Shown: one piece after another, positions 23,425 through 27,813 of the stretch
Numbering within the stretch: position 1 is the first letter of the stretch
Layout: the number at the start of each line of letters is the position of its first letter
Origin: an uncultured Patescibacteria group bacterium
GTDB lineage: Bacteria; Patescibacteriota; Microgenomatia; UBA10105; UBA927
Direction: 5' to 3'
Assembly (NCBI GenBank): GCA_937921305.1
Contig: CAKZSU010000006.1
Span: forward strand, 70,646 to 134,645
DNA length: 64,000 nt
Translations under genes and position numbers: made by a program
Notes under the pieces: generated by a model
The model's input: only the letters and a program-made list of their open reading frames with translations
The model's database searches: none
Told to the model about the DNA's origin: nothing

Positions 23425-23660
23425 TGCCATTTTTCTACTCATTTCTTAATAAGAGAATATCCCATATCTTGAATAATGGTAATGATCTTTTGAAGAGAAA
23501 TGAGATCGGTATCGTATTCCACTTCGCATATTTTTTTGCATAATTTGTAGTTGATTTGATCATCCCTTGAAGATCTTCTAAACGAAAATCAAAGCCATTG
23601 CGCAAGAAACACAGTGCATTCCTTTAAGAAACAATGTTTTTTTCACGACACTCATATGAC
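23425..23660 (-). pseudogene. CopZ-like heavy-metal-associated (HMA) domain gene, disrupted by two frameshifts
   Basis: The minus strand reads MSVVKKTLFLKGMHCVSCAMA (GMxCxxC) then a stop. The domain continues in a second frame (LEDLQGMIKSTTNYAKK) and a third frame (KICEVEYDTDLISLQKIITIIQDMGYSLIKK*). Together these form one ~70-aa HMA domain spread over three frames. Confidence 0.5.
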
Positions 23661-23767
23661 TTCGATAATTCCTGAATACATTCCCATGGAACAGGAAAAT
23701 TGTATCATTCCTTTCTCTTTCGGTGTAAATCGTATCACTTGAGTATCTGTTGGTTGCAAATTTGTGC

Positions 23768-24668
23768 TTATTCCATATGATGGAATACGAAACGCAAGGG
23801 CGCAACTATAGGTATTTTGCTTTTCAAGCGCAATACAACTTCTTCACCTCTACGGACTCTAATATACGACGGAGAATATCCATATGCGTGAACAGTAATT
23901 TCATGATTTTGACAAATATCTACAGTAGATATGTTTTTACTAGGTCGAAGCTCTGAAAACACAATCGTAAGAGGAGATGCTTCAAGAAACGATCGAACGG
24001 TAATCGGAGATCCAAATGCAACAAGAGAACCGTTGATCGACCAAGCACCAAGAAAAATCACGAGAAGAGCGGCAATTTGAAGAAATCGCTCTCTAAACAA
24101 AGATCCGAATACAGAAATGATAGATCCGACACCTAAAAACAATGGCATCGTCCCAAGAGTAAACACTCCCAGAATCAACGCGCCCATCATGCCATTCCCG
24201 CTTGCCACCGCCAACGTTTCCATGGCAAGTGTCGTTCCGCACGGAATAAAGACGGTAAACACGCCTAGAATCGCAGGAGCAAATATGCTTTGAGATCTTG
24301 TTTGATTTTTTATTAATCTTGCCAAAAATCTCGGTGGTTGAATGATGAAATATCGAAGCAAAGGATGAACATCCAAAAGATGAAGCGCTGATAATCATGT
24401 ATATACCAGCAATAAGTTGTAGAACTGATTGCATAGTGTCAGAAAACGTTATAATTTTTCCAAACAATCCCAAAAGGAATCCTAAAGTGACATGCGCAAA
24501 AAACTTGCTTACAAGGAACGCAATTGTTCCAATAACTACATGCAATTGTTTTCTCTCTTCGCTTTTACTCTTTACGGCAAGAACAGAAGCAAGCAAACCT
24601 CCTTGAAGAGATAAACATGTTATTCCCCCAACAGTTAAACCAGTAAAAAATATTAGAGCGAGATCCAT
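23768..24668 (-). pseudogene. DsbD/CcdA-like polytopic membrane protein with C-terminal cupredoxin-like domain, split by a frameshift near 24300-24340
   Basis: Two overlapping ORFs in different frames (24093-24668 and 23768-24376), each with a protein-like N-terminal part (TM helices; ...VFTVFIPCGTTLAME...) and a junk-like overlap. The C-terminus ITVHAYGYSPSYIRVRRGEEVVLRLKS resembles a cupredoxin beta-sandwich. Sits in the copper locus. Confidence 0.45.
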
Positions 24669-24875
24669 ACAATATTATGATAATCTTACTCTTTTTAATA
24701 AGATAGAATTTCCAACAACAGAAATAGACGATAATGCCATGGCAAAACCAGCAAACATCGGATTAAGAAAAATTCCAAGCAGGGAATATAACGCCCCAGC
24801 AGCAACTGGTATCCCTATTGTATTATAAATGAACGCCAAAAAAAGATTTTGTTTTATGGTCTTCATAGTAGCCTA

Positions 24876-26641
24876 TTAAAGACGAAATGCCTGAAATACC
24901 TTTGCAATATCGCCTTTCATAATAGTAATATTAGCCGAATGAATAGCGATATCAGAACCATTCGCCATGGCAATCCCAACATCTGCATGAGCTAATGCCG
25001 GTGCGTCATTAATACCATCTCCAACCATCGCGACAACTTTTCCTTCAGCTTGCAGAGATAAAATAATATCTTTTTTCTCCTTTGGAAGAACATTCGCTTT
25101 CACCATCGAAATACCAATTTCTCTCCCGACAATCTCAGCTGATACAGAGTTGTCCCCAGTTACCAGCATTGGAGTAACGCCTTCAGCGAAAAAAGATGAA
25201 ATAATCGATCTCGCAGATTCTTTTATAGCATCGCTTATACCGATAATTCCGACAGATTCATTATTAATATCCAAAATAACAACAGTTCTTCCCATTCTTT
25301 CCCACTCTTGAATTATTTTTTGCTTTCGATCTTTCTGATGTGGTCTTCGAAGTTTTGCCAATTTACCATCCTCAAGATATCCCTCTATGCCAATCCCCTC
25401 TTTTTCTTGAATATCTTTTATTGCTTTAAGAGACATCGATTGCTCTTTTGCTTTTTCAACAATTGCTTTTCCTAATGGGTGATCTGAATACTGTTCAAGG
25501 CTTGCCGAGATAGTAAGAATGATTTGATCGTCAATGTCACGCGATAGCGCCCTATACTCTTTTACCTCTGGCTTTCCTTTTGTAATCGTTCCAGTTTTAT
25601 CCAATAAAAGCACATCGACATTTTGAAATTTTTCTAAGCTCTCCGCATTTCTAATTAGAATCCCGTGCTGCGCTCCTTTTCCAATACCAACAACAATAGC
25701 AATTGGCGTCGCAAGCCCCAACGCGCATGGACAAGCGATAACAAGCACCCCTACAAACGCAAGAATTGCATATGATACAGATCCGGCAAATAACCAAAAA
25801 TGCCAGCCGCGCAAGCAATAAAAAAAGCAAACGGAACAAACACCGATGATACACGATCAACAAATCGCTGAATATGAATTTTTGATCCTTGCGCTTGTCG
25901 AACCATTTGTATGATGTGAGACAACATCATATCTTGACCGACCTTTGTTGCTCGAATCAAAAAGCATCCTTGCTTATTTATGGTTCCACCGATTACTGAA
26001 TCTCCAACTCTTTTATCGACAGGAATATATTCTCCAGTAATCATTGATTCATCTATTGATGATGATCCTTCAACAATAACGCCATCAACAGGAACTCTCG
26101 CTCCCGGCTTCACTATAACAATATCATTCACATGAACATCAGAGATATCAACATGCTCTTCTTTATTGCCTCGTTTTACTATTGCTGATTTTGATTGAAG
26201 CGAAACAAGTTTTTTAATCGCTTCCGTTGTAATACGGCGAGAACGCATTTCGAGATACTTGCCTACTGTGACAAATCCAATAACAACAATAGGAACATCA
26301 AAGTATGTGTGGGAAGCATTGTGCATATTAAAAGATGATAGAGACGATAAAAACAGATAGACGCTATACCAGTATGCGGTTATTGTCCCCAACCCTATCA
26401 AGGTATCCATATTTGCCACTCTATACCGAAAAAATCTCAAAATCGCGTATATATAAGGCGCTCCAAAATATATAAGGAAATATGTTGCAAAAACAAATAA
26501 AAACACGTTTAAAAATAACAGTGGCAAAGGATTCATAGGAATAAAAGAGAACAGAGCGTGTAGCATGTCCCATATCATGAGAAAAAATACCACCAAAGCG
26601 ATAGGGAATGAGAACAATACATTTCTTTTCATCAAGATCAT
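24876..26641 (-). pseudogene. copA: Copper-translocating P1B-type ATPase CopA, split into two ORFs by a frameshift at ~25800-25830 (T7/A7 homopolymer); no fused N-terminal HMA domain
   Basis: The upstream ORF (25751-26641) has the TM helices and actuator domain, with TGEY in place of TGES. The downstream ORF (24876-25814) has [17 protein letters not shown] and [13 protein letters not shown]. The two overlap by 64 nt in different frames. Calling this a pseudogene rather than a sequencing error is an inference. Confidence 0.6.
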
Positions 26642-26650
26642 TTCTTTTTC

Positions 26651-26863
26651 TTAATTTTTTTCAATTGAAGAAATATCTGAAGCATCAAGAATAAGAGCGT
26701 ATCCTAATCTGCGTAGTTGTTTATTGATAGAATCAAGCGATGTTTTAAGAGCATCATATTCGATAGTCATTTGTTGAGTAGCAAAATTCACATCGCAATC
26801 AATGACACCATTCTCCTTCCTTGCTATTCGGGAAATAACAGACGCGCAACTCGCGCAATGCAT
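26651..26863 (-). CDS. copZ: HMA-domain copper chaperone (CopZ-like), stand-alone; N-terminus possibly truncated (stop codon immediately before KKETVGIRG-MHCASCA)
   Basis: GMHCASCASVISRIARKENGVIDCDVNFATQQMTIEYD is the ferredoxin-like HMA fold with a CxxC motif. A TAA stop lies 9 codons upstream of the first Met, within an A8 run, and a stop separates this ORF from copA. Confidence 0.55.
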   Translation of the reverse strand: MHCASCASVISRIARKENGVIDCDVNFATQQMTIEYDALKTSLDSINKQLRRLGYALILDASDISSIEKN

Positions 26864-26923
26864 TCCTCTTATTCCTACAGTTTCTTTTTTTTATATACCG
26901 TTGTTGAACAGAAAGAGAACTCA

Positions 26924-27505
26924 TCAGTTATTCCATAAAATCAACCATTCGCGCATTTGTTGTATTTCATCGTTTTGAACGGCAATGATATCCTCGGCGA
27001 GTTTTTTCATTTCTGGTCTTTTCGTCGATCGTTTGAGCATCTCTGCCATAACTACCGCCATTTGATGATGCGGAATCATCTGTTCGATAAACGCTCTATC
27101 AAAATCTTCAACGCCTTCTAACTTTGCTAGATCTCGTTCATCCCCCATCATCCCCATATGCAATATAGAATTCTGATTCACATCATTCCCATACATATTA
27201 TGAACAATATTCTTGCTATCGATATCCTTTTCAAACCAATTCTTATACCACGCCTTCATCTGTTCTATTTCTTTTGCTTGTGATTTGATAATGTTTTCCG
27301 CAAGTTGTCTTACTTCTGGCTCCTTCGCTCTGTTTTTTGCCAATTCAGACATGGTTATCGCATCTTGATGATGCGGAATCATGTGTTCGACAAAATATGC
27401 GTCAAGCTCATCAGAAGATTGTTGTTTGATTCCATTCATGCCAAAAAAACCTGCCAACACTCCAATAAGTATTCCTATAAACAGTGATAAAACAATATGT
27501 TTCAT
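26924..27505 (-). CDS. DUF305-family membrane-anchored protein (duplicated MIPHHQ-type helical repeats), metal-homeostasis associated
   Basis: Two repeats each contain MIPHHQ(D/M)A(I/V)xM. N-terminal TM anchor. Located between csoR and copZ. Confidence 0.7.
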   Translation of the reverse strand: MKHIVLSLFIGILIGVLAGFFGMNGIKQQSSDELDAYFVEHMIPHHQDAITMSELAKNRAKEPEVRQLAENIIKSQAKEIEQMKAWYKNWFEKDIDSKNIVHNMYGNDVNQNSILHMGMMGDERDLAKLEGVEDFDRAFIEQMIPHHQMAVVMAEMLKRSTKRPEMKKLAEDIIAVQNDEIQQMREWLILWNN

Positions 27506-27519
27506 AACAAATTCCTCCT

Positions 27520-27813
27520 TTACTCATTCACGCGCTTAAAAAGACGAACTAATTCTTTTATAGCGTTTGATTTTTCTCTTTTAAATTGATCGGCGACATG
27601 CGTCTTGAGATGTCGCTCAAACAATAACGTGTCTAAACTTTTTAGAGAATTCTGAATCGCAAGACTTTGATTGAGAATATCTATGCAATATGAATCCTGT
27701 TCAATCATCCGCTGAAGTCCATCCAACTGCCCTTTAATAATCGCTATCCTCTTTTTTGCTTGTTCTTTCACTTTTTGATAGTGCAAATTCATATATTCAT
27801 ATGATATACCCAT
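27520..27813 (-). CDS. csoR: CsoR/RcnR-family metal-sensing transcriptional repressor
   Basis: 97-aa ORF with RIAIIKGQLDGLQRMIEQDSYCIDILNQSLAIQNSLKSLDTLLFERHLKTHV. The x-Y-C and H/C ligand pattern of CsoR (W-X-Y-Z fingerprint) is present. Confidence 0.75.
   Translation of the reverse strand: MGISYEYMNLHYQKVKEQAKKRIAIIKGQLDGLQRMIEQDSYCIDILNQSLAIQNSLKSLDTLLFERHLKTHVADQFKREKSNAIKELVRLFKRVNE

Follow-up and report, generated by a model that had tools for sequence, protein, structure and literature searches.

A probable copper-efflux operon of an uncultured Patescibacteria bacterium, apparently inactivated recently by multiple hits

Copper-efflux operons of the CsoR copZA type, such as csoR-copZ-copA of Bacillus subtilis and cso of Mycobacterium tuberculosis, begin with a gene for a PF02583 repressor and have an inverted repeat (ATACCC-N5-GGGTAT type) overlying the promoter. 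They encode a P1B ATPase with CPC, YN and MxxSS motifs, a CxxC HMA domain and an HMA chaperone. The CPC/YN/MxxSS transmembrane signature marks Cu(I) pumps. Escherichia coli copA also makes the CopA(Z) chaperone, by programmed -1 frameshifting at a conserved slippery site in an otherwise intact open reading frame (ORF). Here we describe a locus that shares these copZA-type features, found in a 64-kb stretch of one contig (64,000 nucleotides of CAKZSU010000006.1, assembly GCA_937921305.1; hereafter the window) from an uncultured Patescibacteria bacterium of the Candidate Phyla Radiation (CPR). We regard it as a genuine metal-efflux operon of a CPR bacterium that was inactivated recently by multiple hits (probability roughly 0.9). 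The copper-pump gene copA and the two genes behind it are broken, a close relative has an uninterrupted copA, and the lesions recur in assemblies from other samples.

The operon and its nine lesions

All genes of the operon block lie on the minus strand (Table 1). Behind the promoter and putative operator come a PF02583 regulator, a DUF305 gene, copA, a gene that joins a DsbD_2 domain to a cupredoxin domain and, at the distal end, the chaperone gene copZ'. This gene order had been proposed in an earlier, sequence-only reading of the window and was confirmed by Pfam domains and ORF positions. Copper is most likely the substrate, judging from the CPC/YN/MxxSS and HMA CxxC motifs, the DUF305 protein and the cupredoxin domain; strict copper specificity is unproven. 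The Pfam matches themselves are broken up. HMA, E1-E2_ATPase and Hydrolase are split among several ORFs, DsbD_2 extends across two, Cupredoxin_1 is present as a remnant, and a second HMA sequence at the distal end is found in three frames. Together, copA, the fusion gene and copZ' occupy 3486 nt (26924..23439) and carry six frameshifts and three nonsense codons. That the operon is disabled by clustered lesions had been claimed before, with frameshifts in three genes. The three damaged genes stand, and nine frame-breaking lesions could be mapped against an intact relative; the count given earlier was too low and the positions were wrong.

The sequence-only reading had proposed looking for an intact copA in relatives, and one exists. 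Searching with the stitched CopA fragments as a protein query turned up an uninterrupted 757-amino-acid CopA with a fused HMA domain (P0001), encoded on a 3-kb Logan contig (L001) from SRR27730018, which served as the reference. Lesions were mapped by frameshift-aware protein-to-DNA alignment and by nucleotide alignment to L001. The window is 92% identical to P0001 in protein and 91.5% identical to L001 in DNA over 3035 nt, with three gaps only. At all three gaps, and at every in-frame stop of the window, L001 has a continuous frame or a sense codon. The next CopA matches are ~50-55% identical, and the named ones come mostly from Patescibacteria/CPR. A scan of the GTDB species representatives with P0001, which served gene-order comparison only, returned no close relative (best CopA ~50% identical, mostly from CPR metagenome-assembled genomes, MAGs), and two exact-pattern scans of JGI metagenome contigs with degenerate lesion sites gave no match.

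The start codon of copA, ATG 26924, overlaps the stop of DUF305 (TGATG), and the gene lacks the single uninterrupted frame seen in P0001. Its HMA ORF (PF00403) shares the ATPase frame, with only the TAA at 26653-26651 between the two, and this domain is fused to the pump in P0001 and in all listed homologues. The "first copZ" of the sequence-only reading, which had been taken as a separate gene beside a CopA without a fused HMA, is therefore the N-terminal HMA domain of CopA, cut off by a CAA to TAA change. A stop just before the beta1 strand of this domain had also been described. The stop is there, as a by-product of the A8 frameshift in an ORF that starts at ATG 26924, and is not a lesion of its own. 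The T7 run (25826-25820) at which copA had been thought to split has the same length in L001 and was ruled out as a frameshift site; the real lesion lies ~25 nt downstream, at 25800-25796. The tandem TAA-TAG at 24878-24873 had not been noticed earlier, and these adjacent stops may represent one mutational event.

Two further candidates were rejected as lesions. A TGEY in place of TGES in the actuator motif, also reported before, is present in the window and in the intact P0001 alike, and 121 homologues differ from one another at the position following TGE (P 77, S 38, A 3, Y 2, F 1). A TAA at 26930-26928, flagged against the annotated N-terminus of P0001, lies upstream of the likely true start and within the DUF305 overlap, and was not counted. 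The rest of the pump is still legible. The E1-E2 ATPase (PF00122) and HAD (PF00702) domains are present, the DKTGT and HP motifs can be read in translation, and CPC (M4), YN (M5) and MxxSS (M6, AMALSSISV) are readable in the copA fragments.

In the DsbD_2/cupredoxin gene, 2 nt are missing between 24389 and 24388, as the alignment to L001 also shows, and 1 nt has been lost from the A4 run 23818-23815; the breaks do not lie at 24300-24340, where one had been suggested. Once repaired, the 339-amino-acid fusion protein aligns over positions 1-339, in a single high-scoring segment pair and at ~44% identity, to uninterrupted ORFs of three other loci (L011, L012, L007). In each of these the fusion ORF sits directly downstream of copA and is followed by copZ. 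Judging from these loci, PF13386 (DsbD_2) and cupredoxin form what is naturally one gene placed after copA, and the idea that the two parts might be naturally separate genes found no support in any of the three.

The start of copZ' overlaps the upstream stop (ATGA), and its sequence is 36-44% identical to copZ of the same three loci. An intact stand-alone HMA ORF of ~70 amino acids is missing. Two 1-nt deletions, at 23593-23591 and at ~23525, spread the gene over three frames, as the sequence-only reading had described. The MAGs that carry L007 and L010-L013 are labelled "uncultured Pseudomonadales" or "uncultured Gammaproteobacteria"; their CopA is 44-46% identical to P0001 and ranks among those of CPR-labelled MAGs, and these taxonomic labels look doubtful.

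The first two genes of the operon are intact. The PF02583 regulator probably starts at ATG 27792, and a homologue with 73% identity (P0248) begins at the position of its M8. This start follows closely on the -10 box, a hint that the mRNA is leaderless or nearly so. The regulator's own promoter is covered by an inverted repeat, the predicted site TATACCCAGTATGGGTATA within TTGACC-17-TATCAT, which is likely the operator of a CsoR-family repressor. The sequence-only reading had called the unit a textbook CsoR system, which is too strong. The ligand pattern is x-C-H-H (YC...ERHLKTH), so that the third ligand is His and not the Cys of the Cu(I) set C-H-C. Cys occupies this position in 12 of the 12 copA-linked homologues of the fetched loci, and the 143 nearest representatives include 75 with Cys and 57 with His, all of the closest sharing His. 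One His-type homologue (P0249) precedes a DUF302 gene and a P-type ATPase. The His was ruled out as a tenth lesion on these grounds, and the regulator appears to belong to a natural C-H-H subfamily. CsoR of M. tuberculosis and of B. subtilis and RcnR of E. coli, compared beside these, gave no more than a rough guide; the ligand assignment rests on the fetched homologues.

The DUF305 protein is CopM-like and its gene has a dN/dS of 0.19 against L001. Over L001 positions 1-486 it is 81% identical in amino acids with a dS of 0.50, and the adjoining copA is 92% identical with a dS of 0.24; this contrast may reflect a recombination boundary or faster evolution of a secreted protein. That the regulator and DUF305 ORFs are intact may be a chance outcome, as the probability of no hit at equal lesion density is ~0.10.

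The lesions recur beyond the window. Five other assemblies, from four samples and two pipelines, are 99.87-99.98% identical to the window and cover different parts of it. ENA ERZ6864144 (565-kb contig) and ERZ6863697 (67.8-kb contig) span the whole operon, Logan ERR9287625 covers part of it, and Logan ERR9287621 (179.7-kb contig) was recovered via a gene outside the operon. All operon-covering assemblies carry every cop lesion within their span, and ERZ6864144, ERZ6863697 and ERR9287625 are 99.94-99.98% identical to the window over the cop region. The other assemblies differ from the window and from one another (30 single-nucleotide polymorphisms, SNPs, and 4 indels in 40.6 kb), which marks them as independent of each other and made from related strains. 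NCBI, ENA and Logan all have the fragment proteins on record. A cluster look-up yielded neither names nor members at 90% or above, and hence no taxonomic label.

The clustering of the lesions, taken in the sequence-only reading as a sign of lost copper export, is far beyond chance: nine fall within 3.5 kb and none in the 43.9 kb of 36 long ORFs on its flanks, which include 51 homopolymers of at least 7 nt and where ~113 lesions would be expected at the cop density. We propose that a first disabling hit would have released the pump gene and the two accessory genes downstream of it from selection, and that these genes would then have gathered small deletions and C-to-T and C-to-A nonsense changes. 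Full-length CopA, the fusion protein and CopZ could then no longer be made, and copA, the fusion gene and copZ' would be fixed pseudogenes in the species, as far as fixation can be read from assemblies.

Table 1. Features of the copper operon and other decaying genes in the window, with positions in window coordinates
Feature	Position	Strand	Evidence or remark
Promoter-like site, TTGACC-17 nt-TATCAT	27801..27829	-	Best promoter match of the region, 10/12
Perfect inverted repeat TATACCCAGTATGGGTATA	27823..27805	-	Occupies the spacer of the TTGACC-17-TATCAT site
CsoR/RcnR-family metal-responsive repressor, intact ORF	27520..27813	-	PF02583, E=1.7e-22, profile positions 2-78 of 78
DUF305 (CopM-like) protein, intact	26924..27505	-	PF03713, E=2e-45 over the full profile; both MIPHHQ motifs
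copA pseudogene, P1B-type ATPase with fused N-terminal HMA	24675..26924	-	2 frameshifts, 3 nonsense codons
Lesion 1: A8 run, +1 A (A7 in relative)	26885..26892	-	Frame shifts after codon 13: MSSLSVQQRYIKK, then ETVGIRGMHC
Lesion 2: in-frame TAA for CAA (Gln99)	26651..26653	-	Between HMA domain and membrane part
Lesion 3: 1-nt deletion, ATTGTTTGG in relative, ATTTTTGG in window	25796..25800	-	copA is cut immediately ahead of the CPC helix
Lesions 4 and 5: tandem TAA TAG for TCA CAG (Ser691 Gln692)	24873..24878	-	Upstream of the last two transmembrane helices
DsbD_2 plus C-terminal cupredoxin pseudogene	23652..24668	-	~339 aa once repaired; Pfam and frameshift-aware alignment
copZ' pseudogene, stand-alone HMA chaperone with GMHCVSCA	23439..23655	-	tblastn to copZ of L007, L011, L012
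mutS pseudogene	51544..54091	+	9-10 frameshifts and TGG to TGA at 52156-52158; MutS_I to MutS_V over six ORFs or more
mutL pseudogene	54066..55755	+	One +1 frameshift near 55158; Pfam, alignment to L086 MutL
CsaB-like polysaccharide pyruvyl transferase remains	8575 to 7545	-	Low-GC stretch
Multi-pass membrane protein remains	7505 to 5979	-	Low-GC stretch

Age of the loss and decay elsewhere in the window

Apart from its lesions, the copA coding sequence is well preserved. Against L001, its dN/dS is 0.16 at a dS of 0.24, close to the 0.19 of the intact DUF305 gene. When changes at conserved sites were polarised with 119 more distant homologues, 7 could be assigned to the window and 12 to the relative; the window-derived changes at highly conserved positions include T332M, Q646H and P714S. 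Relaxed selection on copA is thus not detectable by dN/dS or by an excess of derived changes. As no neutral protein evolution can be detected, inactivation would have been recent, and the loss would be young beside the 8.5% of DNA divergence that separates the window from the relative with an intact copA. Nine lesions within so short a time are on the high side.

Other genes of the window are also dead (Table 1). A frameshift-aware alignment to two intact homologues (P0128, P0129) places the frameshifts of mutS mostly in A/T runs, and nearly all are 1-nt deletions. The adjacent mutL is left as a 368-amino-acid N-terminal ORF and an ORF for the C-terminal dimerisation domain. A Patescibacteria MAG (GCA_026415875.1, locus L086) has the same suf-PIG-L-Sua5-mutS-mutL order with mutS and mutL intact, and this syntenic locus holds the nearest intact mutS homologue (62% identical). 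On the other side of the operon, a low-GC stretch (24-30%; 5976-8593, minus strand) contains the heavily decayed remains of two glycan-synthesis genes, and strain-level variants are ~3-4 times enriched there. Roughly seven pseudogenes occur among the about 65-70 genes of the window, a share in line with the 5-10% already reported for CPR MAGs (PMC11188291). A literature search joining Patescibacteria, pseudogenes and mismatch repair gave no match, and neither did one for the sample accessions.

Loss of the operon would accordingly be part of a wider reductive decay including mutS, mutL and the two glycan-synthesis genes. Once mismatch repair was lost, single-base deletions probably became more frequent, and this probably accelerated the accumulation of lesions in the cop genes, although the link is weak. 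Lesion density is ~4 per kb in mutS and 2.6 per kb in the cop block; because the density in mutS is at least equal to that of the cop block, the loss of repair probably came before that of copA or at the same time. A more specific scenario would place this CPR lineage in a short mutator phase during genome reduction, in which mutS died first, single-base deletions went up and an unselected operon was riddled before its proteins could drift. We consider this scenario possible but doubtful. If it were true, the lesion densities (mutS > cop > mutL) could be used as a clock that tells in which order genes died in an uncultured symbiont. The broken mutS and mutL are a candidate cause, open to test, of fast gene loss in lineages of this kind.

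It is also plausible, at somewhat less than even odds, that the pseudogenes are real and unrelated to the loss of mismatch repair, selection having been relaxed on a dispensable operon at a normal mutation rate. Small indels biased towards deletion are typical of bacterial pseudogenes generally, and pseudogene shares of 5-10% are known from CPR MAGs. The strain SNPs also fit, as they comprise only 21 transitions against 9 transversions and do not show the extreme transition bias of repair-deficient lines. However, nine lesions without detectable amino-acid relaxation are easier to obtain with a raised indel rate, and with mutS at a lesion density at least that of the cop block, repair had probably gone by the time copA was lost.

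The SNP spectrum is one of several points that weigh against a recent multi-hit loss aided by failing repair. The difference in lesion density between mutS and the cop block is within Poisson noise. A dN/dS without relaxation fits a very recent death and gives neutrality no positive support, and with so few neutral substitutions implied, three nonsense codons (two side by side) are a rather large number. Fixation is judged from assemblies. The genome may also encode another, intact copper pump outside this locus.

If the operon was indeed lost recently, as we favour, this population would have no means to make the copper pump, the membrane cupredoxin protein or the chaperone, and a close relative still has the pump. 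The loss of these three proteins could then mark a recent ecological or host-related shift. The sequence-only reading had pointed to a host-dependent or low-metal lifestyle. A dependent lifestyle is plausible for a CPR bacterium; its derivation from this locus alone does not hold, with unrelated genes also decaying. For surveys of CPR gene content the locus calls for caution, as annotation pipelines render its fragments as six or seven "genes".

Three observations concern the neighbourhood. A 526-amino-acid ORF (21840-23420, plus strand) without a Pfam match converges on copZ'; gene callers give it 469 amino acids in other assemblies, and an A7/T7 run at 23399-23406 that is one base longer in L082, L084 and L085 alters its C-terminus. 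A 744-amino-acid ORF at 56651-58885 had no record on look-up. An 11-bp intergenic indel at 5844-5854 separates the window from the ERR9287621 assembly (L087).

Sequencing error, recoding and genetic code

Homopolymer miscalls in sequencing or assembly could in principle have broken genes that are truly intact. Four of the six frameshifts do lie within short A or T runs, the A8 run included, and the homopolymer at 23399-23406, outside the operon, varies between assemblies. The remaining lesions do not have this character: three are substitutions to stops, another removes 2 nt where there is no run, and the last affects a lone G. All 51 homopolymers of at least 7 nt in the 43.9 kb of neighbouring genes are in frame. 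The identical lesions are present in ENA assemblies of two samples and, where covered, in a third run assembled by Logan. Given this recurrence in assemblies of other samples, the lesions are not sequencing errors, and an artefact, to which we assign a slim chance, is effectively excluded at the level of assemblies.

Slimmer still is the chance that programmed frameshifting, readthrough or transcriptional slippage, perhaps regulatory, continues to supply a functional CopA and its partners. The A8 run (A AAA AAA AG) is a typical slippage sequence for polymerase or ribosome, and the coding sequence is well kept, with the low dN/dS given above and all catalytic motifs present. A full-length CopA, though, would need five events of differing kind (+1, -1, TAA and the tandem TAA-TAG), with a further four, running in both directions and sharing no slippery motif, for the other two genes. 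None of the sites is conserved, and the unrelated mutS and mutL of the window are damaged likewise. Programmed frameshifting at the homopolymers, for which the sequence-only reading had suggested a test, is very unlikely, as the ORFs of L001 and of all more distant relatives run on unbroken at each of the sites.

An alternative code, with TAA and TAG read as amino acids, has a negligible chance: two of the three in-frame stops do align with Gln as in code 6 (TAA with CAA, Gln99; TAG with CAG, Gln692), but the third aligns with Ser, CAA to TAA and CAG to TAG are the commonest one-step routes to a stop, and recoded stops cannot account for six frameshifts. Under the standard code the 36 long ORFs have no internal stops, and their terminators are TAA (18), TGA (15) and TAG (3), so this code is in use; neither in-frame TAA/TAG at conserved Gln of essential genes nor a matching suppressor tRNA was seen in the 64-kb window. 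Inactivation of a genuine operon remains our preferred reading.

Comparison with known systems

Gene decay during genome reduction is already a well-known kind of event, and this locus is an ordinary case of it in a modestly interesting context. As in the pseudogenes of host-restricted bacteria and CPR MAGs (PMC11188291), small, deletion-biased frameshifts and nonsense codons stand beside intact neighbours, and several unrelated genes, DNA-repair genes included, decay together. It differs from them in that the decay is early, the protein still being 92% identical to that of a working relative, and in that the whole operon downstream of its first two genes has been hit.

The likeness to E. coli copA is more limited. 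There, too, the HMA part can arise as a separate polypeptide, whereas in the window it is cut off by a nonsense codon that is absent from the closest relative, with a frameshift ahead of the HMA domain.

In gene content the locus resembles the L007, L011 and L012 clusters (CopA ~45% identical; Pseudomonadales label). They share the order copA - DsbD_2/cupredoxin - copZ and the same fusion, and L007 has a PF02583 regulator directly upstream; in contrast to the window, all of their genes are uninterrupted. From the CsoR copZA-type operons, with which it shares the repressor, promoter repeat, pump and chaperone, the locus departs in its regulator, x-C-H-H as against their C-H-C Cu(I) ligands, in its additional DUF305 and DsbD_2-cupredoxin genes, and in that its pump, fusion gene and chaperone are dead.

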